Notes: a model not told the origin generated them from the sequence alone. A stretch of 64,000 nucleotides of DNA from Pirellulales bacterium (GCA_035547915.1 DASZTS010000014.1:53134-117133), one strand, 5' to 3'. Positions 12,053-55,414 are shown, counted from the first letter of the stretch. Translations and numbers: made by a program.

Positions 12053-12212
12053 TTCCCTCTCCCTTTGGGAGAGGGTTAGGGTGAGGGCGGATCGCCCGCT
12101 CTTGCATCGTTGATTCTCTTCGGACGTGGCTGGCGTTTTCGCTGAGCAAGAGACGACCCTATTGGTACTTTCAGCCGCCCTCACCCCGTCCCTCTCCCGA
12201 AAGGGAGAGGGA
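12053..12212. repeat. ~160-bp palindromic element (CCCTCTCCC...GGGAGAGGG family), copy 1
   Basis: Terminal mini-hairpins CCCTCTCCC-TTTG-GGGAGAGGG and CCCTCTCCC-GAAA-GGGAGAGGG. Long-range inverted repeat GGGTGAGGGCGG / CCGCCCTCACCC. Near-identical copy at 54203-54356. Confidence 0.8.
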
Positions 12213-12247
12213 GTAGTACTGCCGATGTTTTTTTGTTCGTTCCTTAA

Positions 12248-12321
12248 CGGCGTGTAGGAAAGCCTGGGACTCCGCGTGCGTCGGGAGCACGAGATCGCCG
12301 GTTCAAATCCGGCCACGCCGA
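12248..12321 (+). tRNA. tRNA-Pro(CGG)
   Basis: C1:G72 acceptor CGGCGTG/CACGCCG, anticodon arm CGTGC-GTCGGGA-GCACG, T-arm GCCGG-TTCAAAT-CCGGC. A T-rich tract follows. The serine recombinase gene ends 18 bp downstream. Confidence 0.8.
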
Positions 12322-13793
12322 CTTTTTTCAGAGATGAGCCCTTCGGCGAGAACGTCGAAGGGCTTTCTCATTGTGGTGACGAGAGTTACGCCGTCGAGGC
12401 GGCAGTTCAAAAACACGATTTCGAGCAAACGACGCTTTGTCGCGTAGTCGGCGGTAAGCCATTGCTGCCGAAGCGTTTGCGAAAGTTCAAAAACTTTCGA
12501 CGCCAGCTCCGCCGTTTCGTCGTGCGACCGGTCGAGCGCGTCGAGTTGCAGCTTGATCGACGCCATTCGGTCACGCAACTCCGTGTGTTTGCGGGCGAAC
12601 GTCTCCTGGTCGATGTCATCCGACAGTCGCATGTTGAGCAACCGGTCCTGCTGCTGCACGAGCAACGTCTCCTGCCGCTGAAGCTCCGAACGCTGGGCCA
12701 TCGACTCGGTCTGCGCATCCCGCGTCTGTGAAGCAAGTACCAGCCGGAACCAATCGCGGACGCTCTCATCCTCGACCTGCATCTTGTCGAACACGGCCAG
12801 CACCTGCTGGTCGATGTCGGCTTCCGTGACACGCACGCGGGGATGCCCAGCCCTGTTGTAGTACGTGCAGCGGTAATAGATGTAGAAGCGGTCGCCGTTC
12901 TTCGACTTTTTCCTGACCTTCTCGCCGGTAATCGGATGGCCGCAATGGCCGCATTGGATGATGTCGCCGGCGTACGTGATCGCGTGCGACTGGTAAATGT
13001 GATCGCCAAGCAGCACCTGCACGCGGTCCCACGTCGCACGGTCGATCAGCGGCTCGTGTTTGCCGGGATACCACTCGCCCTTGTGGAGGATTTCGCCGAT
13101 GTAGGCCCGATCCTTCAGAACGTTGTGGACCATGCTGCGGGGAAACTTCGGCTGTGCATCCCGAAAGACCCGCCCATCAGCTTCGAGCCGCTCGACCAGG
13201 CCGTCGAGGGTCACGTTCTCGTAGGCATAGAGATGGAAGATGCGTTTGACGTTGGCGGCAGCCGGGGGATCAACCTCGATGATGCCCCGCCCATCCTTGC
13301 GGACGTTGCGATAGCCATACGGAGCCAGTCCGATAAACCAGCCTTCCCGCACGCGACGGGCCAGCCCCTCGCGGACATCCACTGATTGCTGCTCGGTGTA
13401 GAAGCTTGCCATGTTGGCAAGCGTCCGCCGCATCATGCGGCCGGCGGGCGTATTTTCCGTCGGCTGCGACACGGAGATGAACGGCAGGTCGTATTCCGAC
13501 TCCAGCCGTTCCAGCTCAACGTAATCGAAGAGATTGCGGGCAGCCCGGTCCACCTTGTAGAACAGCAAGCCGTCGAGGAACGGGGCGTTCTTCTTGGCGT
13601 ACGCGATCAACTCGCGGAAGGTTTTCCGCTCATCAGTCTTGCTCGCCGTCTCGGCGATCTTGAACAGCTTGGCGATTTCGCCACCGGCCTGCATGGCGTA
13701 TCGCTTGAGGGCTTCTTCCTGTACTTCGAGGCTGAATCCCTCGCGTTCCTGTTCCCGGCTGCTTACCCGTGCCAACGCGACAAACTGTTTCAT
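12303..13793 (-). CDS. Large serine recombinase (site-specific integrase)
   Basis: N-terminal resolvase catalytic domain (ALARVSSREQ...), recombinase domain and Zn-ribbon (CGHCGHP...YYRC), coiled-coil C-terminus. Lies immediately adjacent to the 3' end of tRNA-Pro(CGG). Confidence 0.9.
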   Translation of the reverse strand: MKQFVALARVSSREQEREGFSLEVQEEALKRYAMQAGGEIAKLFKIAETASKTDERKTFRELIAYAKKNAPFLDGLLFYKVDRAARNLFDYVELERLESEYDLPFISVSQPTENTPAGRMMRRTLANMASFYTEQQSVDVREGLARRVREGWFIGLAPYGYRNVRKDGRGIIEVDPPAAANVKRIFHLYAYENVTLDGLVERLEADGRVFRDAQPKFPRSMVHNVLKDRAYIGEILHKGEWYPGKHEPLIDRATWDRVQVLLGDHIYQSHAITYAGDIIQCGHCGHPITGEKVRKKSKNGDRFYIYYRCTYYNRAGHPRVRVTEADIDQQVLAVFDKMQVEDESVRDWFRLVLASQTRDAQTESMAQRSELQRQETLLVQQQDRLLNMRLSDDIDQETFARKHTELRDRMASIKLQLDALDRSHDETAELASKVFELSQTLRQQWLTADYATKRRLLEIVFLNCRLDGVTLVTTMRKPFDVLAEGLISEKSRRGRI

Positions 13794-14050
13794 GGCGGGG
13801 ACCCCGAAGAAAGAGCCTGATACAACCGACCCACAGTCTGGATCATTGTAACGGCATCTTCGGGCGAAAGAAGGTCCGCATAATACGGCTGCCAGACACG
13901 GATCGTCTTCTCGATCAGTTCAGCCGTGATCCAGTCCGGCGTCCCGGCCGGAACGACGCCGGGGCGGGCATCGTTGCCGGTAGTGTCAGCCTTCTTTCGA
14001 TTGCTGCGGGACATGACTGGACACCACCACGAAATGCGCGCACGGTCCAA
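13790..14050 (-). CDS. Hypothetical protein
   Basis: ORF translationally coupled (4-bp overlap) to the recombinase gene. No recognisable motif. Confidence 0.35.
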   Translation of the reverse strand: MDRARISWWCPVMSRSNRKKADTTGNDARPGVVPAGTPDWITAELIEKTIRVWQPYYADLLSPEDAVTMIQTVGRLYQALSSGSPP

Positions 14051-14098
14051 CTGGCACCGCCGCGCGGAATTGTCGAACGCGAGGATCGGCGTTGCCGG

Positions 14099-14356
14099 TC
14101 AGCGGCCCGGCAACAAACCCTCCCGCTGGTAACGCCGAAGTTCATCATGGCTTATTGACCACGAGGCAAAGCTGGCACGACCGCTGAGCTTCTTGCTGGC
14201 CTGGATGCGACCGCCACGTGCCCATCCACGCACTGTCAAACTGGCACGCCCCACGATCCGGGCGAATTCCTCGACCGAATACCACTCCTGCTGCCGCGTC
14301 TCGACCAGCACGGCCAGCATCGCCTCGATCTTCTCAAGCCGTTGTTCCAGCGTCAT
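14099..14356 (-). CDS. Excisionase/MerR-like HTH DNA-binding protein (putative recombination directionality factor)
   Basis: Motif 'YSVEEFARIVGRASLTVRGWARGG' is typical of excisionase-family HTH domains. Located next to the serine recombinase. Confidence 0.5.
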   Translation of the reverse strand: MTLEQRLEKIEAMLAVLVETRQQEWYSVEEFARIVGRASLTVRGWARGGRIQASKKLSGRASFASWSISHDELRRYQREGLLPGR

Positions 14357-14529
14357 GCTCCACCTCAGCTCGCGCCTGTGTCAAAGTCCGACTTGAAATT
14401 CCCGTCGCTCGCAGCAACGCTCACCACGAGCGCTTCGATCACTACCAACACGATGAATTCAAACATCGGTACTCCTTCAAAAAATCCGGGAAAGATGATT
14501 GCCAGATGGGCACTGCCAGGCCCATGCGG

Positions 14530-14811
14530 CTAGTTTTTACTGGCTGTGATGGCCGCTCGCGCCGCGGCGATACCGGCCACCACCGCCCCGATGTCGTCGA
14601 TCAGCCCGAACGGCCCCAGCAACGCTTCGGGCACGATGTCGATCGGCGAAATGCAGTAAATCCCGCAGAAGATTGCGACACTCCAGCCCACGATCGGCAT
14701 AAGGAATTCCCGTAGCTTGCTGTTGGGCATCGACAGCAGCACTCCAAAGGCCACCGCCAGGAGGGTGCCGCAAAACACCATCAACTGAATTGTTCCAAAG
14801 AAACTGCTCAT
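14530..14811 (-). CDS. DUF1232-like small membrane protein
   Basis: Two TM segments and a 'ISPIDIVPEALLGPFGLIDDIGAV' motif characteristic of DUF1232/YkvA. Confidence 0.5.
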   Translation of the reverse strand: MSSFFGTIQLMVFCGTLLAVAFGVLLSMPNSKLREFLMPIVGWSVAIFCGIYCISPIDIVPEALLGPFGLIDDIGAVVAGIAAARAAITASKN

Positions 14812-14860
14812 GATTACCTCCTCTCAAAAAATGCGACGGCTTTGTTGTGGCCGCCGGTGG

Positions 14861-15082
14861 CTACATTTCCATTCCCTGACTCTGCTCCTCGATCTGTTGC
14901 TGCGGCTCTGGCTGGGCAACCTCCGGGCCGCCCTCCCGGCTCGCGTCCGGCCACTGGCCGGGACCGTAGGGAACGAACGCACTGCCGTTGAAGATGGCGT
15001 TGGCCAGTTCCATTTGGCCCTGCGTGGCCATCCGGCTCATCTCTTCGCCCACTTCGTTAAGAATGTCGCCAAGAATTGACAT
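14861..15082 (-). CDS. Hypothetical small acidic protein
   Basis: ORF only. Confidence 0.3.
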   Translation of the reverse strand: MSILGDILNEVGEEMSRMATQGQMELANAIFNGSAFVPYGPGQWPDASREGGPEVAQPEPQQQIEEQSQGMEM

Positions 15083-15105
15083 GCTTCACCTCCAGTGATT
15101 GGGAA

Positions 15106-15972
15106 CTATTGCTTCGCCGCACGTAAGTTAGTGGCAGCCGGTGCGGCATCGGTTCGAGTATGGTTCCAAGACGTATCGTCACGTGTGCCGCCGATCGAAC
15201 GCTGCTCGACCGATCGCCGGGAAACACGCGGTCTGCTAGCCTGGTCGGGCAATGCGCGACCAGCTTCTTTCGGATTGCCGTCCCGGTCGAATTCATCCAT
15301 CGTGTAGCGGAGCGCCTCACGTGACATCATTCGACCTTGCAACACGGCCCGGCGATGCGATCCGCTGTACTGGTGCATGAGTGTCAGGGTGCCGAGCGAC
15401 ACCAGGATTGCCGCCGCCAGCACAGCCACACACCCCCGTTTGATTCTGGCCTGTGCCCGCCGCCGGTCGTCTGCACTCGGCGGACCGAAGGATTCTTCGT
15501 AATAGCGGACCGTCGTCGTCCACAGCGGGGGAATGCCGGGCGTGAATATGATCGCGGTTCGCGGTGACAGTCCCTCTATTTCTTCGGGCTTCAGCAGCTT
15601 GCGGACCTGCTGGCCCCAACCGCTATTCTGGTTCTCCGAATAGCTGCTGCTTCCTTGCCCCGCCCCCGATGGCGACTGCACAGATTTCCCGGTGCTGCTG
15701 CCGCCGTTGTCCACCACGACCGTTTCCTCGCCCAGCCGGGTACTGACATACTGCGAAGTCTGTGGGTCGTTGACGCCGACGAACACTTGCGACGTGTTCG
15801 ATAAAATAGTTTGATCCTGGCCGTCGGGGCCTAGCTTCTTGAGCTGACCCAGCGATTGCAGCAGGTAAATCAGATGCACGCCGTAGCCTCGATATTTATC
15901 CTGCGCGTCATCGAGGGCGTCCATGTGACCCAGGCTGCCCGCTTCATCAAGGACAAAATGGACCTTTTTCAT
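15106..15972 (-). CDS. Type IV coupling protein TraG/VirD4, C-terminal fragment (Walker B onward)
   Basis: Begins MKKVHFVLDEAGSLG (Walker B DEAG), then LIYLLQSLGQL and TAIIFTPG. Overlaps the upstream fragment by 4 nt (ATGA). Confidence 0.7.
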   Translation of the reverse strand: MKKVHFVLDEAGSLGHMDALDDAQDKYRGYGVHLIYLLQSLGQLKKLGPDGQDQTILSNTSQVFVGVNDPQTSQYVSTRLGEETVVVDNGGSSTGKSVQSPSGAGQGSSSYSENQNSGWGQQVRKLLKPEEIEGLSPRTAIIFTPGIPPLWTTTVRYYEESFGPPSADDRRRAQARIKRGCVAVLAAAILVSLGTLTLMHQYSGSHRRAVLQGRMMSREALRYTMDEFDRDGNPKEAGRALPDQASRPRVSRRSVEQRSIGGTRDDTSWNHTRTDAAPAATNLRAAKQ

Positions 15973-17240
15973 TGCTGGAGTCCTCCTTCAACCACCGCCC
16001 GGAGCATCGCGCCAATCCACATCCGCATCAGGGCTGCTTGTGCCCGCAAATGCTCCGGCGGCAGGACCAGGTACACCGTCATCTTTCCGTTTCGTAGTCT
16101 GGCGGGATCGAAGCTGCTGGTCCGCGTATTCTCCGCGACGGCGATTGTGTCGAGGAATCGCAGGAAGCGGTTGGTTGTCGTGAGGACTGAGCTAAGTTCC
16201 TTGTCCTTGAAATGTGCGAGTTGGCCGCCTATTCGCCGAAGCATTCCGCCCCAGGCATCCGAGCCTTGCATCAATGCGATTGCGGCTTCCAGCTTTTTCG
16301 GATTTGAAAGAAGCGTGCGGACCGCCTGCAACGACCGGTCATCGCCGGGTTCTGCAAACTGCACGACCATCGAGCACAGCCCCGCTATAAGTGCTTCCGC
16401 ACTGTCTGGAAAATGCGGGTCTCTCTCTTGTCCAGTCCGAATCACAAATGCGTTGGCGAGATCAAAACATGCGTCGATCGCCAGCGGTGATTCCCTCTTG
16501 ATGAAATCCAGCGGATTGAAGGTGTCCGGCGTCTGCGTCACCACTTTGTAGGGATCGAGGATTCGCACCTCGTGCCCAAACACTTTCTCTCTGTGCGTCC
16601 CCGTTAAGGACGCTAATTCCCCTTTGACATCGACCACGACGCATGAATCGGGGCAAGTTTGCAGGAAGGGGATGACAAACGAAACGCCTTTGCCCACACC
16701 CGTGGGAGCGAACACCGCCGTATGTACGGCGTTTGGCAGCCTTACCAGCTTCTGTTCGGGCTGCCTGAACATTGCCAGAAACTCCTTGCACGCGGTTTCA
16801 TCATCAATCTGCCGGTCAAACAGGGCTTTGATTGCCGGACCGGCTCTCTGAGGGGAATCGGTGACTCGCCCAAGGATTAAGCCACTGTCGGCATCAAGCA
16901 TTCCGGCTCGCCTCAAATCCTCAGAGCCGGCCCAGCGGGCCGACCCCAACGTGGTCAACCGGTTTTTCTTCTTCCTGCAATGGACCACGATGACGACGGC
17001 CACGACCGTGAGCACGAAGTAGGGGTACATCCAAGCCGCGAGGCCACAAGGCAAAGCAATTGCCACGACGGCCACGACCAGCATTTGGCGATAGAAACTC
17101 ATTCCGCACCTCACTTCAAACTCGGATAAGCGGCCACATGCGGCGCTGCCTTCGGGTCCAGACCGTCCACGCTTGATTCTGCCGTGTCCTTCAGATGCTC
17201 TCGCATTGCAGACAGCCATGTCTCGGCCGCATTTCGCCAA
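15969..17240 (-). CDS. Type IV coupling protein TraG/VirD4, N-terminal fragment (TM + Walker A)
   Basis: N-terminal TM helices, Walker A APTGVGKGVSFVIP and TraG/VirD4-like all-alpha domain. Stops immediately before the Walker B encoded by the next ORF, so the gene is split (frameshift). Confidence 0.75.
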   Translation of the reverse strand: MAKCGRDMAVCNARASEGHGRIKRGRSGPEGSAACGRLSEFEVRCGMSFYRQMLVVAVVAIALPCGLAAWMYPYFVLTVVAVVIVVHCRKKKNRLTTLGSARWAGSEDLRRAGMLDADSGLILGRVTDSPQRAGPAIKALFDRQIDDETACKEFLAMFRQPEQKLVRLPNAVHTAVFAPTGVGKGVSFVIPFLQTCPDSCVVVDVKGELASLTGTHREKVFGHEVRILDPYKVVTQTPDTFNPLDFIKRESPLAIDACFDLANAFVIRTGQERDPHFPDSAEALIAGLCSMVVQFAEPGDDRSLQAVRTLLSNPKKLEAAIALMQGSDAWGGMLRRIGGQLAHFKDKELSSVLTTTNRFLRFLDTIAVAENTRTSSFDPARLRNGKMTVYLVLPPEHLRAQAALMRMWIGAMLRAVVEGGLQQ

Positions 17241-17273
17241 TGCTCGACCATCGCGATTTCCTCAATGGGCGTG

Positions 17274-18089
17274 TCAGTCGTTTGCATGACTAACCCTCTT
17301 GGCTCTGTCCCGCATCGCTGATTGCCATTTCTTCACGTCATACCGCTTCGCCGCTTTACGAGCCTCCTGAAGCGTCTCGGCAAGTAGCTGTACTATTTCC
17401 GACATTCCGAGTTCCTTGCCGGTAATCACGACCGTGGCTTGCGACATCGGTATCTTCACTCGCGACAGGTGGACCGCCTGAGCCTGGCCCTGCCGGGCCT
17501 TGCGGCTTTGCCGCTCAACTTCATCGCGCGAGCTTCCCGACCGAATCGCGGCCAGCATCCGCCGTTGCTCCTCCTCCTCACCGGCTTTCTTGATCGCATA
17601 AGCTTTTGAGAAGCCGAACTCGCCGTTCAAGAAGGCTTCCTTCGCTTCCGGGATCAGGTCGTCCACCGAGAGAATCCGCGGCATCATCGACGGGTCGAAA
17701 CGCATGTCCGCCGCCAGTTCCTTCTTTGACCGGTCAGGGCTCTCCGCCGCAATTTCCTTGCAGGCCCGGTACACCTCTGCGTCGGTCAACCCTTCCCGCA
17801 GCAGGTTTTCGATCAATTGCAGCCTCTTGATCTCGCCGGGGCTCACCTCGCCATCGAGCACTTTCACGTCAGCGTGCGTAATTCCGGCGAGCTTCATAGC
17901 CCGCAGCGACCGTTCCCCGGCCACCAGCGTCCGGTCACGCAGCACGACCAGCGGGCGAAGCTGCCCGTCGCGTTTCAGGCTTTCGGCGTGCCGCCGAAGT
18001 CCCTCTTCGTCAAACTGCTTGCGGACGTTTTCCTTGACGATGATGTCTTCCACCGCCCATCGCTCGTAGGTTCCGATTGTGGTCTTCAT
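17274..18089 (-). CDS. ParB-like nuclease / partition-domain protein
   Basis: ParB/Srx N-terminal motif (VAGERSLRAMKLAG) and HTH middle domain. Confidence 0.75.
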   Translation of the reverse strand: MKTTIGTYERWAVEDIIVKENVRKQFDEEGLRRHAESLKRDGQLRPLVVLRDRTLVAGERSLRAMKLAGITHADVKVLDGEVSPGEIKRLQLIENLLREGLTDAEVYRACKEIAAESPDRSKKELAADMRFDPSMMPRILSVDDLIPEAKEAFLNGEFGFSKAYAIKKAGEEEEQRRMLAAIRSGSSRDEVERQSRKARQGQAQAVHLSRVKIPMSQATVVITGKELGMSEIVQLLAETLQEARKAAKRYDVKKWQSAMRDRAKRVSHAND

Positions 18090-18484
18090 TGCGACCTCCT
18101 TTCATCTCTCAAAGGTTCACTCAACTTGCCCTGCTTCGATTTCCCCCGATCCGCCTCCCACTGCTTCAACTCCGTGAAGAGTTCGACCGCCCTGATCGCG
18201 TCTTGCAGATTCCCCTGACTCTCCTTCCACCTGACGAACTCAAGAAACCGGTCGAAGAATCTGGCCCGCCATGCCGATTCCGTTTCCGTTTTTGATGCCC
18301 ACCACACCAGTGCCAGGCTGAAAATCGTCGCTGCCGGAAACAGCGGCATGTACACTCGCGGATCGTGAAGGCCATCCCTGTCCCAAAGCTCTGGATGCGT
18401 CAGGTCATCGTGAATGACCCAGCCGTACCAGACCGGTCCCACGGTTAAGAAAAGCAGGAGAATGGCGGCCTGAATGTTTTTCAT
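18086..18484 (-). CDS. Hypothetical membrane protein
   Basis: ORF with TM segments, coupled to parB-like gene. Confidence 0.4.
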   Translation of the reverse strand: MKNIQAAILLLFLTVGPVWYGWVIHDDLTHPELWDRDGLHDPRVYMPLFPAATIFSLALVWWASKTETESAWRARFFDRFLEFVRWKESQGNLQDAIRAVELFTELKQWEADRGKSKQGKLSEPLRDERRSQ

Positions 18485-18551
18485 GATCCGTTTCCTTCAT
18501 GCGGGTTGCCTGCTGCGGGCAAAGGGCGCTTTGCGCCCCTTATCCTGCTGG

Positions 18552-18767: not shown

Positions 18768-18824
18768 GACGATCCTCCTCTCTCTTCAGTCCGAATTGCT
18801 TTCCACATGCCTTCGCCGCCCGGC

Positions 18825-19052: not shown

Positions 19053-19078
19053 GCTTCAAGCTCCTTTCGATTCTGTGC

Positions 19079-21454: not shown

Positions 21455-21500
21455 TTGACATGTAGCTACGAAGTGGGGTATATTTGTATACATATACCCC
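21455..21500 (+). promoter_or_regulatory. Sigma70-like promoter (TTGACA-17-GTATAT) overlapping a 26-bp GC-clamped palindrome, upstream of int
   Basis: TTGACA at 21455. Palindrome GGGGTATAT-TTGTATAC-ATATACCCC at 21475-21500. The int ATG is at 21525. Confidence 0.4.
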
Positions 21501-21524
21501 GGTTAAACGTAAAATGTACCCCAG

Positions 21525-26260: not shown

Positions 26261-26320
26261 TGCGAGGATTCGATTTCCTAAATATCACCGGCGCGCCACC
26301 GCAACGTCACACCTACGCCG

Positions 26321-26405
26321 CGCGTCCGGTTACACAGCGTGCCGCTTACTTCAACGGCCTTTTGCGTCGCCGCTGGACACTTAGGTACGCCCACGTTCGC
26401 CTTTC
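26321..26405 (+). repeat. 85-bp direct repeat, copy 1 (flanks oxygenase-like cassette)
   Basis: GCGTCCGGTTACACAGCGTGCCGCTTACTTCAACGGCCTTTTGCGTCGCCGCTGGACACTTAGGTACGCCCACGTTCGC is ~92% identical to 27341-27425. Confidence 0.8.
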
Positions 26406-27340: not shown

Positions 27341-27425
27341 CGCACTGTCGATGTCCGCCATGCGTCCGGTTACAAATCGTGCCGCTTTCTTCAACGGCCT
27401 TTTGCGTCGCCGCTGGACACTTTGG
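27341..27425 (+). repeat. 85-bp direct repeat, copy 2
   Basis: See copy 1. Confidence 0.8.
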
Positions 27426-27698
27426 TACGTCCACGTTCGCTTCGGATCGAACCACTGTCAGCGTTTCATCGCGTGAGCAGTTTCTTCCACGCCCATGAAT
27501 TCCTGCTGGCTGCATGTAATGTAAACGATGACGCTTTCTGCGTTGCCGACGCCTTTCCGGTTTCCCATTGTCGTTACTGAGCTTGCAGGACTGGATTTCA
27601 CCATGCTGGTCACATGGCGTCATGCCTTCTTCGGGCTTTAAGCCGTCCGGGACACACGCGGCCTCACTTCGGGACTCTTAAAGCCGCCGCCGGTCCGC

Positions 27699-48935: not shown

Positions 48936-49233
48936 CGGTAAATCTCCTTTATGTAAGATAATCTTACCAACCGGTAAGGAGGCTGTCAAGGAGAATTTCG
49001 TCATGCACCTTCTGCCTGACGCACGTGACCGCTTCCGCCGCCTTGCGGCACACCTTGCGATGCGAACTACTTTGCGGCCCCTGCCATTTCATGTCTGAAC
49101 GCCGCCCCAGCCAGACGTCAAGCGGGACTAAGCCCATCGAAAAAGACGTGACAATCGGGCGTGGAGTGGTTTGCTCTCAGGCAAATCGCCCAGAACCAGG
49201 GTCAAGACTGGCTGAAGACAGTGCAAGCAATCA

Positions 49234-50436
49234 TTACGCCTTCGCCGCAGCTTCAAGCTGCTTCTCGTTGGCGACGACATCGACATGCCACACTCCCGCC
49301 TCCGCAAGGAACTTAGCCGCACGCTTCGCGAGGTTCAGCAGTCGTGTGTCGTGTGTGAGAAAGATGTTCATCGTGCTCAACATTGCGGCATGCTCGCAGT
49401 CGAACGACAGCCCACCCGTCGGAATCTCCCCCTTGGCCAGGCACATTTCCAACTCTCCCAACACTACCTCGTCAGGCACGCGGGCGTATAAAAGGCACGT
49501 GCGCGACAGATTGCGGAATAGTATTTGGAGCGCCTTGGCCAGGAGCTGAGCGTCGGACGCGCACTGCGCCGGGGCCGCCTCCGCGAGAAACTTCGGCGGC
49601 GCCATCGCCTTGTTTCCGTGGATGACACCCCAGTAATCCCGGATCGCAGCCGTGTCAAACGTCATGAGCAGGAACGAATTGCGGTGGAACACGCTGGCCA
49701 TACACTGCCCTAATTCCGCCGCGCTATACGCCTCCGCAACCTGCTTTTTGTTCTTTTGAAGGCGTCCACGCGTGGCGTCGTCCATCGGCGTTGCCTGCGC
49801 CACATTCTGGTCGATCTCGTCGCGCAGGTCCTGGAGTGGCCGTGCATCGAATTCGGCCCAAATGTCGTCGGTCGTTACCAGAAATTCTTTGGCGCATTTG
49901 ACCATCTCGTCCACGAACGCCGCCGGGGCACGGGCGAATCGCGAGTGAAGCAATCGGCTGGTGATCTTCGACCGTAAAAGATCATCAATCGCCTCTGGGC
50001 GGTTGAGCGTCCGGAGCGCCGCAAGCATGGCGAGCAGGCCCGCATATACCTGTTGGCTGGTAGTCTGCGCGAACTCGAAATAATCCAAGCACCGGATGGC
50101 CGCCGGGGCCGCAGCGTCAATGACCTGGAGCAAATTCCGCACAAGCAGAAACTCGAATCCGGGTGCCATCCGGCGGCAATTGGTCAGTTCGACAAGTGCC
50201 TGGGCGAGGCGCACGCGAAGGTCCAGCTTCGGCGTGTCCCTCAAGCAACTCTGCTCATCGAAATCAGCGCATAGGAAAATCTCCAGCACATTGACCGGGC
50301 TGGTCCACACTTCGACCGCTCCTTCAGCCGCCAGATTGGCGATCATGCCGCCGAGTTTCGTCTCACTCCACGGTGTCGCAGCATCCTCGCACATGGTAGA
50401 AAGGCAACACTGGTCGATGTATAGCTTCTTTGGCAT
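49234..50436 (-). CDS. Hypothetical protein
   Basis: 400-aa ORF with no recognised motif. Last gene of the element before the tRNA array resumes. Confidence 0.5.
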   Translation of the reverse strand: MPKKLYIDQCCLSTMCEDAATPWSETKLGGMIANLAAEGAVEVWTSPVNVLEIFLCADFDEQSCLRDTPKLDLRVRLAQALVELTNCRRMAPGFEFLLVRNLLQVIDAAAPAAIRCLDYFEFAQTTSQQVYAGLLAMLAALRTLNRPEAIDDLLRSKITSRLLHSRFARAPAAFVDEMVKCAKEFLVTTDDIWAEFDARPLQDLRDEIDQNVAQATPMDDATRGRLQKNKKQVAEAYSAAELGQCMASVFHRNSFLLMTFDTAAIRDYWGVIHGNKAMAPPKFLAEAAPAQCASDAQLLAKALQILFRNLSRTCLLYARVPDEVVLGELEMCLAKGEIPTGGLSFDCEHAAMLSTMNIFLTHDTRLLNLAKRAAKFLAEAGVWHVDVVANEKQLEAAAKA

Positions 50437-50690
50437 TCAGATCAGGCTCCGCATTTACGCATCCGCGTGTCGCACCGGCGCGCAGTTCCTCTCCGCCTCC
50501 CCAAGTTACGACGCTGGTACGTGGCCAAGGTTCGCGCCTACCTAGCTAGGGTAAATTCGCTCATTTCTGCAAGCGGTCTCCGAAGCCGGGTATCGCCGCA
50601 AGTGCTTGCCCTGCAAGCGGTAGCTGCGAACAAAGTGATTTGACGCCGGCGATAAAAAGTTCAATAGCCGTCTTGTCGCCCCGACTCGAT

Positions 50691-50765
50691 TGCGGTGGGA
50701 CCCGTGTTGGTACGGGTAGGCGGCTGTTAACCGCCCGGACGCAGGTTCGATTCCTGCCACCGCAG
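50691..50765 (+). tRNA. tRNA-Asn(GTT)
   Basis: U1:A72 acceptor TGCGGTG/CACCGCA, G73, anticodon arm GGCGG-CTGTTAA-CCGCC, T-arm GCAGG-TTCGATT-CCTGC. Confidence 0.8.
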
Positions 50766-50805
50766 CTTTTTTAAGCCTAATCTGGTTTTGTCGGTTGCTC
50801 TAAAT

Positions 50806-50877
50806 GTGCCCTTGGCCGAGCGGCAAAGGCTCCAGCCTTCCAAGCTGGCGAGGCGAGTTCGACTCTCGCAGGGCACT
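50806..50877 (+). tRNA. tRNA-Gly(TCC)
   Basis: Acceptor GTGCCCT/AGGGCAC, U73, anticodon arm CCAGC-CTTCCAA-GCTGG, T-arm GCGAG-TTCGACT-CTCGC. Confidence 0.8.
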
Positions 50878-50891
50878 CTGCATCGGATTGA

Positions 50892-50962
50892 TCGGGGATC
50901 GGCTAACGGTAGGCTGCCTGGCTTTGACCCAGGTGATGGAGGTTCAAGTCCTTCTCCCCGAA
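50892..50962 (+). tRNA. tRNA-Gln(TTG)
   Basis: U1:A72 acceptor TCGGGGA/TCCCCGA, anticodon arm CCTGG-CTTTGAC-CCAGG, T-arm GGAGG-TTCAAGT-CCTTC. Short D-arm. Confidence 0.65.
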
Positions 50963-50998
50963 CTTTGCTCGCGATGGTGTGTCTCAAGTAATACCCGA

Positions 50999-51072
50999 TC
51001 CGGGGCAGTCGCTGCTGGTAGCGATGCCTGGCTCTGAACCAGGAGGCGTTGGTTCGATTCCAACCCCCGGAA
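50999..51072 (+). tRNA. tRNA-Gln(CTG)
   Basis: Acceptor TCCGGGG/CCCCGGA, D-stem GTCGC/GCGAT, anticodon arm CCTGG-CTCTGAA-CCAGG, T-arm GTTGG-TTCGATT-CCAAC. Confidence 0.75.
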
Positions 51073-51121
51073 TTTTTATGGTCGAAAGAGATCTGCAACA
51101 AGTCGTGAACAACAGATAGAT

Positions 51122-51209
51122 GCGGAGGTCATCCGGCTGGATGAGGAACTTGTCTCGAAAACAAGTAGCGGCCCTGCCGCTTGTGAGTTCGAGTCTCACG
51201 GCCTCCGCC
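51122..51209 (+). tRNA. tRNA-Ser(CGA) (class II)
   Basis: Acceptor GCGGAGG/CCTCCGC, anticodon arm CTTGT-CTCGAAA-ACAAG, long variable arm GCGGCCCTGCCGC, T-arm GTGAG-TTCGAGT-CTCAC. Confidence 0.75.
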
Positions 51210-51322
51210 TTGAGTAAGAGCGGCTGATAGAAACCAAAAGCCCGAGCGCCATGGCAAAAATTGGCTGTGAAACGCCAATTTTTCGGCAGCTCGATCCAAT
51301 TTTGTCGGCTGCAATAAAACAC

Positions 51323-51395
51323 GGTCCCGTGGCCTAGCAGCGAAGGCAGCACCCTTACAAGGTGACGATCGACAGTGCGAGTCTGTCCGGGACTA
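51323..51395 (+). tRNA. tRNA-Val(TAC)
   Basis: Acceptor GGTCCCG/CGGGACT, anticodon arm GCACC-CTTACAA-GGTGA, T-arm GACAG-TGCGAGT-CTGTC (G55 in place of U). Confidence 0.65.
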
Positions 51396-51410
51396 CTTCA
51401 AACGCGAATC

Positions 51411-51484
51411 GCCTAGGTACGCCAACAGGCAGAGCGGCTTGGCTTAAACCCAAGTGTTTGCGGGTTCAACTCCCGCCCTGGGCA
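51411..51484 (+). tRNA. Class-I (short variable arm) tRNA with UAA anticodon (Leu anticodon, atypical)
   Basis: Acceptor GCCTAGG/CCTGGGC, anticodon arm CTTGG-CTTAAAC-CCAAG, T-arm GCGGG-TTCAACT-CCCGC. 74 nt with only a 5-nt variable loop. Confidence 0.55.
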
Positions 51485-51546
51485 CTCGTGAAGACAGCTT
51501 AGAGCAACCGGCAAGATCGGACGCCGGTCTTGTCAGCCGCTCTTAC

Positions 51547-51619
51547 GGCTCGGTAGGCAACGGCAGACCACCTTGGCTTAGAACCAGGGATGCTGTGGGT
51601 TCGAGTCCCACCTGAGCCA
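51547..51619 (+). tRNA. Class-I tRNA with UAG anticodon (Leu anticodon, atypical)
   Basis: Acceptor GGCTCGG/CTGAGCC, anticodon arm CTTGG-CTTAGAA-CCAGG, T-arm GTGGG-TTCGAGT-CCCAC. 6-nt variable loop. Confidence 0.55.
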
Positions 51620-51624
51620 TTCGC

Positions 51625-51742
51625 ATAAGAACGGCTGACGAAACCTGGAAGCCGGAGCGCGGCGGGCGAAAAATCGGTCGTGAAACGCCGAGTTTTTGAA
51701 ACATCGAGTCGGTTTCGTCAGTTGCTCGAAGAATTTCGTCCT
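51625..51742. repeat. Palindromic ~110-bp spacer element (TAGAGCGGCTGACAAAACCGG ... CCGGTTTTGTCGGTTGCTCTA family)
   Basis: Inverted terminal arms and internal hairpin ATCGGCCGTGAAACGCCGAT. Further copies at 52014-52108, 52352-52473, 52553-52660 and 55491-55600. Partial copies at 51497-51545, 52905-52950, 53290-53350 and 56451-56512. Confidence 0.75.
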
Positions 51743-51747
51743 CGTGG

Positions 51748-51822
51748 AGCAGCCTGGAGTGCTCGCCACCCTGTCAAGGTGGAGGTCGTGGGTTCAAATC
51801 CCATCGGGGACGCCTTTGAAAG
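51748..51822 (+). tRNA. tRNA-Asp(GTC)
   Basis: Acceptor GTCCTCG/CGGGGAC, G73, D-stem GAGC/GCTC, anticodon arm CCACC-CTGTCAA-GGTGG, T-arm GTGGG-TTCAAAT-CCCAT. Confidence 0.8.
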
Positions 51823-51835
51823 CACGGCGCGGTAC

Positions 51836-51913
51836 GCAAACGGGAAAAGCGGCCAAGCTCAAACCTTGGTGATTCTTTGTCGGTTCGACTCCGACCCGCG
51901 CCACTCGAACACG
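51836..51913 (+). tRNA. tRNA with CAA anticodon (Leu anticodon), 9-nt variable loop, atypical
   Basis: Acceptor GGCGCGG/CCGCGCC, anticodon arm CCAAG-CTCAAAC-CTTGG, T-arm GTCGG-TTCGACT-CCGAC. 78 nt, without the long class-II variable arm. Confidence 0.55.
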
Positions 51914-51931
51914 AACAACATGCGTCGGTTG

Positions 51932-52013
51932 GGCATTGGCAAGCTCCAGTGGCCGTAACCCACCCGCCTTCGGGCTCTGCAGGTTCGACTCCTGCCCGGC
52001 GCACTAAGAGCGG
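51932..52013 (+). tRNA. tRNA-Tyr(GTA) (class II), C33
   Basis: Acceptor GCGTCGG/CCGGCGC, A73, anticodon loop CCGTAAC, variable arm CCGCCTTCGGGCT, T-arm GCAGG-TTCGACT-CCTGC. Confidence 0.55.
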
Positions 52014-52117
52014 CTGACAAAATCGGGAAGCCGGAGTGCCGCGGGCGAAAAAATCGGCCGTGAAACGCCGGTTTTTGTGGCTCGATCCGGTTCTGTCGGT
52101 TGCTCTAGATACAACTT

Positions 52118-52188
52118 GGCCCGTTCGTCTATCGGTAGGACACGAGCCCCTCAAGCTCGGAAGGCGGGTTCGATTCCCGTGCGGGTCA
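52118..52188 (+). tRNA. tRNA-Glu(CTC), C33
   Basis: Acceptor GGCCCGT/GCGGGTC, D-arm of Glu type (TCGTCTATCGGTAGGAC), anticodon arm CGAGC-CCCTCAA-GCTCG, T-arm GCGGG-TTCGATT-CCCGT. Confidence 0.6.
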
Positions 52189-52192
52189 CTTC

Positions 52193-52276
52193 GGCCAAGT
52201 GGTGCAATTGGAAGACACACGACGCTCAGAACGTCGGCCCCTCGCGGGCGTGGGAGTTCGAGTCTCCCCTTGGTCA
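52193..52276 (+). tRNA. tRNA-Leu(CAG) (canonical class II)
   Basis: Acceptor GGCCAAG/CTTGGTC, anticodon arm CGACG-CTCAGAA-CGTCG, long variable arm GCCCCTCGCGGGCGT, T-arm GGGAG-TTCGAGT-CTCCC. Confidence 0.8.
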
Positions 52277-52282
52277 TTTCGA

Positions 52283-52351
52283 CGCAGGTGGGCCAGTGTC
52301 CAGCGAAGCCTCATAAGCTTCGCGCGCCGGGTGCGACTCCCGGACCTGCAA
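52283..52351 (+). tRNA. tRNA-Met(CAT), short (69 nt), initiator-like C1.A72 mismatch
   Basis: Anticodon arm (GC)GAAGC-CTCATAA-GCTTC(GC), T-arm CCGGG-TGCGACT-CCCGG, acceptor CGCAGGT/ACCTGCA with unpaired C1.A72 and A73. Reduced D-arm. Confidence 0.5.
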
Positions 52352-52476
52352 CTTTGGAGTTGCTCTTAGAGCGGCTGACAAAACCCGGAAGCCGGAGCGC
52401 CCGTGGGCGAAAAATCGGCCGTGAAACGCCGATTTTTGTGGAGCGAAGTCCGGTTTTGTCGGTTGCTCTTAGATGC

Positions 52477-52552
52477 GGCCGGGTACGCAAACCGGAAAAG
52501 CGGCGAGGTCGAGAGCCTCGTGACTCTGTGGGTTCGACCCCCACCTCGGCTA
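52477..52552 (+). tRNA. tRNA with GAG anticodon (Leu anticodon), 7-nt variable loop, C33, atypical
   Basis: Paralog of the CAA tRNA (same TA-CGC-AAACCGGAAAA-GCG D-arm). Anticodon arm CGAGG-TCGAGAG-CCTCG, T-arm GTGGG-TTCGACC-CCCAC. Confidence 0.5.
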
Positions 52553-52660
52553 CTAAGAGCGGTTGACAAAAGCTAGACGCCGGCGCGCCGCGGGCGAGAA
52601 ATCGGCCGCGAAACGCCGATCTTTGTGGAGCGCGATCTGGTTTTGTCGATTGCTCTAAAC

Positions 52661-52732
52661 GATCTCGTGGTCCAACGGCGACGACGCTTGGCTGACGTCC
52701 GGGAAACGATGGTTCAACTCCATCCGGGATCA
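52661..52732 (+). tRNA. tRNA-Val(GAC)
   Basis: Acceptor GATCTCG/CGGGATC, anticodon arm CTTGG-CTGACGT-CCGGG (two G.U pairs), T-arm GATGG-TTCAACT-CCATC. Confidence 0.55.
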
Positions 52733-52737
52733 CTCAT

Positions 52738-52808
52738 GGTCTGTAGGTGTTTCGGCAGCACACCGCCGTGGTAAGGCGGAAGACCCGGTTCAATTCCGGG
52801 ACGGACCT
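52738..52808 (+). tRNA. tRNA-Thr(GGT)
   Basis: Acceptor GGTCTGT/ACGGACC, anticodon arm CCGCC-GTGGTAA-GGCGG, T-arm CCCGG-TTCAATT-CCGGG. Confidence 0.75.
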
Positions 52809-52829
52809 CTGACACGACAAACACAACAC

Positions 52830-52901
52830 GGGCCTGCATGTCCCCGGAGGCGACTGACCCTTGCAAGGTCGGTGTGATGGGTTCGACCCCCATCAGGTCC
52901 A
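52830..52901 (+). tRNA. tRNA-Ala(TGC)
   Basis: G3.U70 identity pair, acceptor GGGCCTG/CAGGTCC, anticodon arm TGACC-CTTGCAA-GGTCG, T-arm ATGGG-TTCGACC-CCCAT. Confidence 0.8.
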
Positions 52902-52955
52902 CTTGTTAGAGGAACCGACAGAACCGGATCGAGCTTTCCTCGGATCGACTGATAT

Positions 52956-53026
52956 GGGCTGCTGGTCCAACGGGACGACGCCGGCTCCGCAGGCCGGAAA
53001 TCGGAGTTCGACTCTCCGGCGGTCCA
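52956..53026 (+). tRNA. tRNA-Ala(CGC), C33
   Basis: G3.U70 present. Anticodon arm CCGGC-TCCGCAG-GCCGG, T-arm CGGAG-TTCGACT-CTCCG. Confidence 0.6.
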
Positions 53027-53036
53027 CTGACAACGA

Positions 53037-53107
53037 GGGCTCATCGTCAAAAGGGAAGACGCCAGTCCGGCAGGCTGGAGATCTGGGTTCGATTCCCAGT
53101 GGGTCCA
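53037..53107 (+). tRNA. tRNA-Ala(GGC), C33
   Basis: G3.U70 present. Anticodon arm CCAGT-CCGGCAG-GCTGG, T-arm CTGGG-TTCGATT-CCCAG. Confidence 0.6.
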
Positions 53108-53124
53108 CTCAACCGAGGAGAAAG

Positions 53125-53211
53125 GGAAGGTAGGCGGATACGGCTTGCCGCGCCGCTTTGCTAAAGCGGTTCCCGGGACACGGGATGAGGGTTCGACTCC
53201 CTTGCCTTCCG
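53125..53211 (+). tRNA. tRNA-Ser(GCT) (class II)
   Basis: Acceptor GGAAGGT/GCCTTCC, G73, anticodon arm CCGCT-TTGCTAA-AGCGG, variable arm TCCCG-GGACA-CGGGA, T-arm GAGGG-TTCGACT-CCCTT. Confidence 0.75.
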
Positions 53212-53217
53212 CTCGTT

Positions 53218-53289
53218 GCCCCGATGGTGAAACGGACATCATCCCCTGCTTCTAACTGGGTGTTCCGGGTTCGAGTCCTGGTCGGGGTA
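53218..53289 (+). tRNA. tRNA-Arg(TCT)
   Basis: Acceptor GCCCCGA/TCGGGGT, anticodon arm CCCTG-CTTCTAA-CTGGG (one U.U mismatch), T-arm CCGGG-TTCGAGT-CCTGG. Confidence 0.5.
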
Positions 53290-53366
53290 CTGATAAGAGC
53301 AACCGAAAAGACCGGATTGCGCTCTCGGCTTCCGGTTCTTGCCGGCCACTGTAAGGAGGACCGTTT

Positions 53367-54170
53367 ATGACAACCGACATCGAGAGGCAATTCGCCAAGA
53401 TGGGTGCGCGGATCAAGCTGCACGAGCGCGAGCAGATCGGCAGCATGGCCGGCGTCTCGATCGACATCGGTCGCGACCGGTTGGGCGAGTTTTATGACGT
53501 CTCTGTGGACAACCGCGACGACAAGAACTTGTCGGTGCTCGACGTGCGACCCCGCATCCGGCACTTGCTGTTGTCGTACCATCGGCCGGCGGTGAACACC
53601 AACAGCCGGTTCCTGTGCGGTCACGACGAGCGGCATTGGTTCGTCGCGGCGATCCCCGAAACATCGGCGTCGTCGTCGGTGCGGACCGCCATGGAGTCGC
53701 TCAAGCCGATGGCCGTTCGCCGCCTGCAGGAGAGACTTCGCGTCAAGCCACAGAAGCGGAACCGCCGGCGCAACGCAGCGTTCGTCCGACAGGGCGAGTG
53801 GTTCTTCATCCGTATTGCTCCATCCGTCCGCATCGACGAGTGGATGGTTCTGCGGAACGAGCCATTGCGGCGTGGCAACGGCAAGCCGCATTTCGTCGAG
53901 GAGCTGATTCGCGTCGGCGGAGAAGCGGTCTATGTCAGCAACCAATACCCGCAGGGTCTCACGTTCCGCGAGTATCAGAAGCTGATCGGCCGCAAGCCGG
54001 AGCTACGGCACTTGCAATGGGTTGTGCAGCGGCGCAACCCGCAGGTTTTTGTACGGGGTAGGGTTCGCCATGCCGATCACAAGACGATTTTCTTGGACGG
54101 CTGGCACCAGGTACTGATGAACACCGAGACGCAGTCGCTCGCGATGCGTCATGTGGCGTTCATCGACTGA
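53367..54170 (+). CDS. Hypothetical protein (inside tRNA array)
   Basis: RBS AAGGAGG then ATG. 267-aa basic protein with no recognised motif. Confidence 0.5.
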   Translation: MTTDIERQFAKMGARIKLHEREQIGSMAGVSIDIGRDRLGEFYDVSVDNRDDKNLSVLDVRPRIRHLLLSYHRPAVNTNSRFLCGHDERHWFVAAIPETSASSSVRTAMESLKPMAVRRLQERLRVKPQKRNRRRNAAFVRQGEWFFIRIAPSVRIDEWMVLRNEPLRRGNGKPHFVEELIRVGGEAVYVSNQYPQGLTFREYQKLIGRKPELRHLQWVVQRRNPQVFVRGRVRHADHKTIFLDGWHQVLMNTETQSLAMRHVAFID

Positions 54171-54202
54171 GAGTCGGACGATAAAGAGAGCCGGACGATA
54201 AA

Positions 54203-54356
54203 TTCCCTCTCCCTCCGGGAGAGGGTTAGGGTGAGGGCCGATCGCGCGCTCCTGTGTTGTCGACTCTCTTCGGACGTGGCTGAGTTTTCGCTGAACAGGG
54301 GACCGACCCCATTAGTACTCTCAGCCGCCCTCACCCAACCCTCTCCCCGAGGAGAG
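54203..54356. repeat. ~160-bp palindromic element (CCCTCTCCC...GGGAGAGGG family), copy 2
   Basis: Near-identical to 12053-12212. Partial copies at 55112-55170 and 55320-55345. Confidence 0.8.
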
Positions 54357-54414
54357 GACGGAAGACTGCGGAAGTTATTCGATCGCGGGTTGGCGGAACC
54401 GTCGACCCGCATAC

Positions 54415-54490
54415 GGTGTCTGTGGTGTAGCGGTATTCTGCACGCCCGGCTGTGAACCGGATGGTATGGGTTCGACTCCCGTCAGACACC
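54415..54490 (+). tRNA. tRNA-His(GTG) with encoded G-1
   Basis: G-1 pairs with C73. Acceptor GTGTCTG/CAGACAC, anticodon arm CCCGG-CTGTGAA-CCGGA, T-arm ATGGG-TTCGACT-CCCGT. Followed by a CTTTTTTTG tract. Confidence 0.8.
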
Positions 54491-54517
54491 CTTTTTTTGA
54501 CAAGGAGGAATTTGGTC

Positions 54518-55111
54518 GTGGTTGCAAAGATGTTGAACAGACCGGCGCTGGTGCTCAACCGTAACTGGCAGCCGGTGAACGTCGCTACCGTCGCTCGCGC
54601 GCTGGTCATGCTCTTCAACGAGGCGGCCCGCGTCGTCGACCCGCACGACTACCAGCTCTACACCTGGACTGACTGGTCGCGGCTGGCTCCGCGCGACGGC
54701 GAGCCGTTCATCCGGGCGGTGAGCCTGCGGCTGCGCGTGCCGGAGGTGATCGTGCTGGCGGGTTACGATCGGCTGCCCGAGGCGGCCGTCTCGTTCAGCC
54801 GGCGCAACATCTTCAAGCGTGACCACTACACGTGCCAGTATTGCGGCGTGCAACCCGGCCTCGCGGAGTTGTCGATCGACCACGTCGTCCCGCGGTCGCA
54901 GGGCGGCACCTCGACCTGGGACAACTGCGTGCTGGCATGCGTGGACTGCAACAAGACGAAGGCCGACCGCACGCCCGCCGAGGCCGGCATGAAACTGCGC
55001 AAGCAGCCTTGCCGGCCACAATGGAAGCCACTCTACGCCGCGCACAACGTGCGCATCGAGAGCTGGTCGAAGTTCATCAGCGAAGCCTACTGGAGTGTCG
55101 AACTCCGCTAG
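54518..55111 (+). CDS. HNH endonuclease
   Basis: C-terminal HNH motif (DHVVPRSQGGTSTWDNCVLACVDCNKTKADRTP) and Cys-rich CQYCG. RBS AAGGAGG, then a GTG at 54518 or an ATG at 54530. Confidence 0.75.
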   Translation: MVAKMLNRPALVLNRNWQPVNVATVARALVMLFNEAARVVDPHDYQLYTWTDWSRLAPRDGEPFIRAVSLRLRVPEVIVLAGYDRLPEAAVSFSRRNIFKRDHYTCQYCGVQPGLAELSIDHVVPRSQGGTSTWDNCVLACVDCNKTKADRTPAEAGMKLRKQPCRPQWKPLYAAHNVRIESWSKFISEAYWSVELR

Positions 55112-55245
55112 ATCCCCTCTCCCTCTGGGAGAGGGTTAGGGTGAGGGCGGCTTGCATTACAAGCCGCGTCCAACCTGCCTCTCGCTGACAATAGTTTCTT
55201 CGTTCGTTTCCCGATCCAAGCTGGGGCAGCTTGGATCGGCCTTAT

Positions 55246-55315
55246 AGGATCGTGCTCCTGGGAGAGCACGCGGTCTCCAAAGCCGCTTCACGGGGTTCGA
55301 CTCCTCGCGATCCTG
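55246..55315 (+). tRNA. tRNA-Trp(CCA)
   Basis: A1:U72 acceptor AGGATCG/CGATCCT, G73, D-stem GCTC/GAGC, anticodon arm GCGGT-CTCCAAA-GCCGC, T-arm CGGGG-TTCGACT-CCTCG. Confidence 0.8.
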
Positions 55316-55414
55316 CTCGATCCCCTCTCCCTCCGGGAGAGGGCAAACAGGTCGATACCCGTGCCCAGTGACAACTACATAACACGCGAGTCATCGGCCT
55401 TACATGAACAACCT

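Follow-up and report, generated by a model that had tools for sequence, protein, structure and literature searches.

The stretch analysed here, hereafter the window, comprises 64,000 nucleotides (nt) of DNA from a Pirellulales bacterium (GCA_035547915.1 DASZTS010000014.1:53134-117133), and copy counts for the source genome refer to these 64 kb. It contains 38 tRNA genes, all on the plus strand, which form two blocks (11097-12322 and 50691-55861). Spacers of this tRNA array harbour two long palindromic elements of ~190 nt, copy A (~12034-12227) and copy B (54171-54374), which are 86-88% identical, together with a solo motif and a bare hairpin, one on each side of tRNA-Trp. The gene for tRNA-Pro(CGG), starting at 12248, lies 36 nt 3' of the end of copy A, and that for tRNA-His, starting at 54416, lies ~59 nt 3' of the terminal hairpin of copy B. 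The first-pass annotation, made from the sequence alone, had placed the long copies at 12053-12212 and 54203-54356, each 5' of a tRNA gene and about 90% identical to the other, and had noticed isolated hairpins flanking tRNA-Trp. These positions were borne out, both isolated hairpins were found, and the identity of the long copies was measured as 88% across 82 nt (repeat family D20) and 86% across 137 nt. All copies are intergenic, between tRNA genes or open reading frames (ORFs), with the solo motif beginning 3 nt past the stop codon of an ORF for an HNH endonuclease. Their building block is a motif that has been known since the 1990s, i.e. for about 30 years.

This motif, named BoxC, PIT or TMECO, was described by Holder et al. 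(2015) with the pattern CCCTCNCCC-N3-6-GGGNGAGGG-N3-GGGNGAGGG (PMC4666352). The pattern was matched exactly at four sites of the window (Table 1) and never in 100 shuffles (0.00 expected), and the 22-mer GGGAGAGGGTTAGGGTGAGGGC likewise gave four matches against 0.01 expected. With two degenerate copies, the window total amounts to four exact and two degenerate motifs. Table 1 of that paper also lists 34-36-mers of E. coli K-12 that are identical to the window motif (PMC4666352), and Kaplan et al. (2016) studied the same sequence as a switch between G-quadruplex, hairpin and duplex, termed HPG1/HPG2 (PMC5100583). By sequence, the mini-hairpins are BoxC/PIT/TMECO motifs, the same as the HPG1/HPG2 switch, and the long form is a local member. 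The first-pass annotation had proposed a new, second palindromic family of ~160 bp; this had to be given up, as the terminal units match the published BoxC/PIT/TMECO pattern exactly (PMC4666352). Given the four exact matches, the 160-bp palindrome is the known inverted pair, in which a type A motif (loop TTA) faces a non-TTA motif.

Each unit consists of a C-rich arm, a loop, GGGAGAGGG, 3 nt and GGGTGAGGG, an order seen at three left ends and at one right end. Both long copies open with CCCTCTCCC-N3-GGGAGAGGG-TTA-GGGTGAGGGC and close with a similar unit in reverse complement; this closing unit is perfect in copy A, whereas that of copy B is degenerate. The terminal arms (30 nt; inverted pair I13) are 83% complementary, and the ~190-nt unit is non-coding. 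At first pass the hairpin had been recognised correctly while the third block, GGGTGAGGG, had been overlooked, and an N4 loop had been given for it; four of the five hairpins have an N3 loop, and N4 is confined to 12190-12211.

Holder et al. distinguish type A motifs, with loop TTA, from type B motifs, with CCG-like loops, and the five inverted pairs of E. coli K-12 each join one of either type (PMC4666352). Copy A pairs TTA with ACG, and copy B pairs TTA with a degenerate partner; the ACG loop is non-TTA, yet outside the E. coli type B set of CCG, CTG and TCG. The window elements share with the published motif the exact pattern, the TTA loop of type A, the inverted pairing of A and non-A motifs with their G-blocks inward, a strictly intergenic location and a presence that varies among relatives. 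They differ in the spacer of the pair, which is a hairpin-forming core of ~90 nt here versus 16-27 nt in four convergent E. coli K-12 pairs, in their location within a tRNA array, and in their host, a member of Pirellulales compared with the 262 proteobacterial genomes and the cyanobacteria of that paper (PMC4666352), in which the motif is reported as strictly intergenic, without a known function and tied to local genomic instability.

For comparison with other genomes, one genome per species was scanned with the 21-mer GGGAGAGGGTTAGGGTGAGGG as the query, which returned at least 120 stretches and was the basis of the 120 motif-selected loci. The 21-mer was present in at least 120 genome contigs, almost always with the complementary C-arm on its 5' side, from Planctomycetota, Chloroflexota, Nitrospirota, cyanobacteria, Alpha-, Beta-, Gamma- and Deltaproteobacteria, Verrucomicrobiota, candidate phyla and one archaeon. 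It also occurred exactly in at least 120 viral or proviral IMG/VR contigs (L205-L324), and identical 33-36-mers recur in Planctomycetota, Chloroflexota, Nitrospirota, cyanobacteria, Proteobacteria and even viral contigs. In the earlier literature, the motif was reported as not associated with phages or plasmids. Many phyla contributed to the ~25 convergent nearest-neighbour pairs found among the 120 motif-selected loci. Their spacers span 20-171 nt, and all but one or two of these pairs combined a TTA with a non-TTA loop; viral contigs contributed 14 further convergent TTA/non-TTA pairs. Pairs of a type A and a type B motif that recur in tandem, reminiscent of bacterial interspersed mosaic elements (BIMEs), were observed in a metagenome-assembled genome of Dehalococcoidia (L050 1391-1997, period ~143 nt) and in Leclercia adecarboxylata (L051 6222-6561, period ~164 nt).

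Two related planctomycete contigs, L122 and L123, were retrieved via the gene for a 267-amino-acid (aa) protein that precedes copy B. Between this gene and tRNA-His, the window has a spacer of 245 nt, compared with 45 nt for L122 and 36 nt for L123; between tRNA-Gly(GCC) and tRNA-Pro, it has one of 217 nt, compared with 5 nt for L123. The same tRNA array runs uninterrupted in L123, and the 267-aa protein of L122 is 82% identical to its window counterpart. When aligned with L122, the solo copy falls in a gap of 83 nt between GAACTC and CAATAG/CAATAA, and the HNH ORF now stops at a TAG (55109-55111) that comes from this insertion. No match to the motif was found in either L122 or L123. Since the orthologous spacers are empty in both related contigs, the window copies are, on these alignments, lineage-specific insertions, and the filled and empty sites in close relatives show motif gain by insertion.

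Homology between copies A and B, as well as the insertion bounds set against the related contig, extends ~20-30 nt past the hairpins, and GAGCCGGACGA is kept in the left flanks of both. Similarity that continues ~20 nt past the hairpins, in two copies that sit in one tRNA array, would be expected if a segmental duplication of a piece of this array had made both; we regard this as very improbable, as the flanking genes differ (tRNA-Gly/tRNA-Pro versus a protein gene/tRNA-His), the similarity ends no more than ~20-30 nt from the motifs, and the gene order is the same in a relative that lacks both insertions. In the left flank of copy B (54171-54202), GAGTCGGACGATAAA and GAGAGCCGGACGATAAA stand one after the other as a tandem duplication, of which the latter unit is the part common to copy A. 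The solo motif and the bare hairpin have 8 nt of left flank in common (repeat family D19, 93%). The possibility that these two are truncated long elements was rejected, their right-hand sequence being no closer to copies A and B than shuffled sequence (p = 0.18-0.95).

The minus-strand ORFs 11981-12316 and 54149-54412, which span copies A and B, had been called translation artefacts at first pass, and we concur. Their frames are open for 111 and 87 codons, which is what real small proteins would require; such a reading is hardly credible for ORFs that overlap opposite-strand tRNA genes, are largely translated repeat with low-complexity peptides as the product, and derive from DNA that is missing in the relatives. 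For annotation, recognition of the repeat disposes of these two spurious ORFs and accounts for the odd spacers.

The position of the long copies upstream of tRNA genes had raised the possibility of an association with tRNA 5' flanks. This did not extend to other genomes: the 120 motif-selected loci hold nine tRNA genes in 0.88 Mb, and only two of 211 motif sites lie within 100 nt of one. Within the window, every copy is also found ~2-35 nt 3' of the end of the preceding gene. The copies stand upstream of tRNAs because their intergenic sites lie inside a tRNA array, and the link with tRNAs is incidental.

Folding of the long copies gave z-scores of -8.75 and -6.67, which supports the palindromic repeat seen at first pass as a genuine dispersed repeat with a strong tendency to form hairpins. 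In the consensus structure, 47 of 47 pairs are kept in both copies, and the 15-bp core helix carries two compensatory and three wobble changes between them; this covariation is suggestive only, because just two sequences contribute to it. The 88-nt core had no BLAST match among the 120 motif-selected loci and is lineage-specific. At Rfam gathering thresholds, only tRNAs were detected in the window; relaxed thresholds added only spurious miRNA models and a sub-threshold likeness to the candidate small RNA whalefall-1 (RF01762; Weinberg et al. 2010, PMC2864571). With the latter, the element has in common a CUCUCC/GGAGAG hairpin followed by GGGUGAGG. Membership was rejected at 18.9-24.8 bits versus a gathering threshold of 37 and with the 24-nt middle segment of the model missing, and the element stands outside every Rfam family. 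It was also rejected as an intrinsic terminator: downstream of the hairpin, the tRNA-sense strand has no T-run, and terminator-like calls were obtained on the minus strand only.

These observations bear on a possible role at the RNA level, in which the element, co-transcribed with the pre-tRNAs, would act in the tRNA operon through its long hairpin or through an RNA G-quadruplex of GGGAGAGGGUUAGGGUGAGGG, as a processing site, as an attenuator or by stabilising the upstream RNA at its 3' end. Such a role would account for the G-rich type A motifs being all on the tRNA-coding strand, for elements located ~2-35 nt past the 3' ends of upstream genes, for the compensatory and G-U-preserving changes in the core helix and for the sub-threshold likeness to whalefall-1. 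We consider it quite unlikely: two relatives in which the rest of the tRNA array is conserved have no such elements in the orthologous spacers, the motif occurs elsewhere without tRNA association, the hairpin is not followed by a U-run, the Rfam scores are far below the whalefall-1 threshold, and E. coli PIT elements have neither promoter nor terminator activity (cited in PMC4666352).

At the DNA level, the three 9-nt blocks of the motif (the C-rich arm, GGGAGAGGG and GGGTGAGGG) could together form a hairpin, a purine-motif intrastrand triplex or a G-quadruplex. The G-quadruplex-type tract in the window, GGG-AGA-GGG-TTA-GGG-TGA-GGG, has four G3 tracts separated by 3-nt loops and is preceded by CCCTCTCCC. 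The same G3-N3-G3-N3-G3-N3-G3 arrangement with a complementary C-rich 5' flank defines HPG1/HPG2, which also lies between ORFs and in opposite-strand pairs; the two names denote a single element, identified in the window by its sequence (PMC5100583). We infer that the window motif may also adopt an intrastrand triplex, given its identity with oligonucleotides shown to form one in vitro (PMC4666352).

A DNA structure selected by the host, i.e. a triplex/G-quadruplex/hairpin switch that regulates neighbouring genes or confers a useful local instability, is in our estimate unlikely. It would fit the extreme conservation of the motif across phyla, the triplex (PMC4666352) and G-quadruplex/hairpin (PMC5100583) formed in vitro by the identical sequence, and the raised rearrangement rates at E. 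coli motif loci (PMC4666352). It is at odds with neighbouring genes that follow no rule of functional class, distance or operon, and with the lack of a stable triplex in vivo (PMC4666352). Moreover, the window sites are lineage-specific insertions in unrelated spacers, and copy numbers of 1-30 among E. coli strains fit a parasite better than a regulator.

With a probability of about 0.75, the window elements are non-autonomous ~190-nt units of the known motif, akin to miniature inverted-repeat transposable elements (MITEs) or to hairpin-forming doublets of repetitive extragenic palindromes (REPs), known as REPINs, that inserted in a planctomycete tRNA array and have no tRNA-specific function. 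At least three or four units or fragments entered intergenic spacers of a tRNA array conserved among planctomycetes, just past the ends of genes, where they are tolerated. Their spread, as DNA that is selfish or neutral, would have involved a hairpin intermediate, either single-stranded or cruciform, and possibly mobilisation in trans, for which the preferred candidate enzyme would be a DUF559 endonuclease from full-length, motif-flanked cassettes found elsewhere. Taken alone, the repeat is ordinary: a long-known motif, in another phylum, within a tRNA array by happenstance.

Several points weigh against this reading. Both the copy count and the search for a mobilising gene covered 64 kb of the source genome, and the motif has never been shown to be mobile by any mechanism (PMC4666352). 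At the three filled/empty junctions, no convincing or consistent target-site duplication was found, with weak candidates that differ by site, namely GACTG for copy B, a T-run for copy A and CTC(C)GCT(A)GA for the solo copy. In addition, the type A motifs point in the same direction as the tRNAs (4/4) and all copies lie within the tRNA array, which an RNA-level role predicts likewise. Finally, the core covariation comes from two full copies, from which the structure itself was derived.

As to known systems, the window elements resemble MITEs in being shorter than 300 nt, non-coding and hairpin-forming, with terminal inverted repeats of ~33 nt and insertion polymorphism among relatives; unlike MITEs, they have no demonstrable target-site duplication. 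With REP/BIME and REPIN systems, the latter paired with the REP-associated tyrosine transposase (RAYT), the motif shares short GC-rich palindromes, inverted doublets that appear as long hairpins, tandem arrays (L050 and L051), sites just past gene ends and a distance of most copies from a possible mobilising gene. Its sequence is unrelated to theirs, it has a third block (triplex/G-quadruplex), and its candidate partner is a PD-(D/E)XK nuclease of DUF559 in place of RAYT. We know of no RAYT (Y1 transposase) for the BoxC/TMECO motif, nor of a transposase-encoding parent for these elements. No recurrent transposase-like family turned up among the ORFs within 2.5 kb of motifs at the 120 loci, a comparison in which no RAYT profile was run.

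Clustering of these same ORFs, those within 2.5 kb of motifs at the 120 genome loci, revealed one small family adjoining the motif in four unrelated taxa, which was identified as DUF559 (PF04480, 120-140 bits; PDB 3HRL), a Vsr-like PD-(D/E)XK nuclease. DUF559 is a very large family for which no function is known. At four of the 120 loci, the motif brackets or precedes a DUF559 ORF, and the bracket faces inward in three (Table 1). An independent test set of 80 metagenome loci was retrieved by DUF559 protein alignment without the motif-encoded residues. Allowing up to three mismatches, the motif was found upstream of the gene in 40, downstream in 41 and on both sides in 32 of these 80 loci. Allowing one at most, its density was 1.78/kb within 150 nt of DUF559 ORF ends versus 0.118/kb elsewhere (15-fold), and zero in shuffled sequence. 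Orientation was also biased, with 20 plus versus 4 minus motifs upstream and 19 minus versus 5 plus motifs downstream, and the units occupied at least 12 independent flank contexts.

In 11 of 29 such units, the ORF continues without a stop across both motifs, a GTG within GGGTGAGGG shares the frame of the conserved N-terminus, and GGGAGAGGG stands at the position of the ribosome-binding site and is Shine-Dalgarno-like. Short pairs on cassette-bearing contigs carry the lineage-specific left and right motif variants of the cassette. Motifs that adjoin a DUF559 gene are only a small minority, and none of the 120 viral loci had DUF559 beside a motif.

Tentatively, and with a confidence short of even odds, we propose that a small selfish cassette encoding a DUF559 endonuclease is bounded by BoxC/TMECO motifs as its two terminal inverted repeats, which are not identical to each other. 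The abundant short pairs of a type A and a type B motif, the ~190-nt window elements and the 'palindromic TMs' of E. coli among them, would be its non-autonomous relatives, and solo motifs would be decayed halves. The motif-DUF559-motif units of other genomes, in which a DUF559/YcjD Vsr-like gene (PF04480; PDB 3HRL) is bracketed by inward-facing type A and non-A motifs in the arrangement of the window pairs, could represent the autonomous parent expected of a MITE. The window elements differ in lacking DUF559 coding sequence, and neither a DUF559 gene or remnant nor such a unit was found within the window. The core was tried as an internally deleted DUF559 gene, as the frame of copy B was suggestive, and rejected when a profile of the between-motif peptide gave no significant match in any frame. 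A literature search returned no paper joining BoxC/TMECO with DUF559, and publication elsewhere is possible; within the literature searched, the association, for which the evidence comes from sequences of other genomes, is the only part of these results to go beyond published work. The origin, mobility and function of the motif have stayed unexplained despite biophysical work. The recurrent, specific and oriented association with DUF559 offers a concrete hypothesis that is testable in E. coli and would give the DUF559 family a role.

In E. coli K-12 (L124, NC_000913.3 1351204-1351760), the DUF559 gene ycjD ends with ...CGGTCACCCTCTCCCTGA (RSPSP*), followed by a degenerate G-arm; its 3' end is a degenerate right motif. 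About 60 nt past this arm lies a ~40-nt duplicate of the 3' coding end of ycjD and then the intact TMECO #9, 168 nt downstream of ycjD. In phylogroups A, B1 and C, the gene takes the place of the eef operon, and motif counts are 19-30 in A/B1/C strains versus 1-2 in B2 strains (tables of Holder et al., PMC4666352). The covariation of ycjD presence with motif number is consistent with a cassette, and it is confounded by phylogeny. DUF559 is also among the gene families enriched at predicted inversions.

Table 1. Positions of the BoxC/PIT/TMECO-derived elements in the window and of motif-bracketed DUF559 genes at loci of other genomes.
Feature	Position	Strand	Sequence and remarks
Left flank of copy A	12034..12054	+	GGAGCCGGACGAACAACAATT, common to copy B; begins 4 nt past tRNA-Gly(GCC); from alignments
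Type A motif, left end of copy A	12055..12087	+	CCCTCTCCC-TTT-GGGAGAGGG-TTA-GGGTGAGGG; loop 2 is TTA; exact published pattern
Core of copy A	12088..12177	+	~90 nt, imperfect palindrome; aligns with core of copy B
Inverted motif, right end of copy A	12178..12211	-	CCCTCTCCC-TTTC-GGGAGAGGG-ACG-GGGTGAGGG; loop 2 is ACG (non-TTA); exact pattern
Right flank of copy A	12212..12227	+	AGTAGTACTGCCGATG, in part common to copy B; from alignments
Insertion of copy B	54171..54374	+	~204 nt; right after stop codon of 267-aa gene (54168-54170), 42 nt 5' of tRNA-His
Type A motif, left end of copy B	54205..54237	+	Exact pattern match
Core of copy B	54238..54326	+	Aligns with core of copy A
Degenerate inverted motif, right end of copy B	54327..54358	-	7-bp hairpin, 2-nt loop 2; sub-threshold Rfam alignment; fails exact pattern
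Solo insertion	55106..55188	+	83 nt, at 3' end of HNH ORF; solo type A motif 55115-55147 (+), exact pattern
Bare hairpin	55323..55343	+	CCCTCTCCC-TCC-GGGAGAGGG, without third G block; few nt past tRNA-Trp
Motif-bracketed DUF559 genes	L095 3824-4306; L103 1398-1806; L118 7032-7502		
Further DUF559 genes bracketed by inward-facing motifs	L153, L156, L163, L168, L180, L191, L193 and others		

Between the two tRNA blocks, a stretch of ~38.4 kb (12323-50690) with lower G+C (0.54-0.62) splits tRNA-Pro(CGG) from tRNA-Asn, which are 8 nt apart in L123, and looks like an integrated element. At its left end lies the gene for a large serine recombinase (12303-13793, minus strand; Resolvase, Recombinase and Zn_ribbon_recom domains), the 3' end of which overlaps the tRNA-Pro gene. 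The first-pass annotation had placed copy A right next to the insertion point of this mobile element. The nearness is real; a link does not follow from it, since the tRNA-Pro gene lies between and no motif was found within the 38-kb island. The island also contains an 85-nt direct repeat (26316-26400 and 27356-27440; family D16), 92% identical and 1040 nt apart.

Within the array itself, tRNA-His and tRNA-Trp are separated by the HNH endonuclease ORF (PF01844; 54530-55111). L122 has this ORF as well; L123, where the two tRNA genes are 9 nt apart, lacks it, and the ORF is therefore another selfish-looking insertion. The gene for the 267-aa protein (53367-54170), which encodes no Pfam domain, is situated inside the tRNA array before tRNA-His in L122 and L123 as well, and the protein has more than 6000 homologues of 60-80% identity in Planctomycetota. 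The tRNA spacers further carry another repeat family (51215-52660, 52905-53324, 55497-55599 and 56452-56482), with units of ~85 nt (TAAGAGCGGCTGACAAAA...GAAGCCGGAGCGCC...AAAAATCGGCCGTGAAACGCCGATTTTT) and 45 nt (GGTTTTGTCGGTTGCTCTAAAT) that correspond to families D3, D5, D10 and D17 and to pairs I1-I10. This family has inverted copies at 55533-55599, and it contains hairpins that resemble bidirectional terminators. Planctomycete-specific domains encoded in the window, namely those of the PSD and PSCyt families and DUF1552, place it in Pirellulales. Elsewhere in the window, a long ORF (192-3884, 1230 aa) contains ~12 WD40-like repeats of 126 nt (families D1, D2, D4 and D9).

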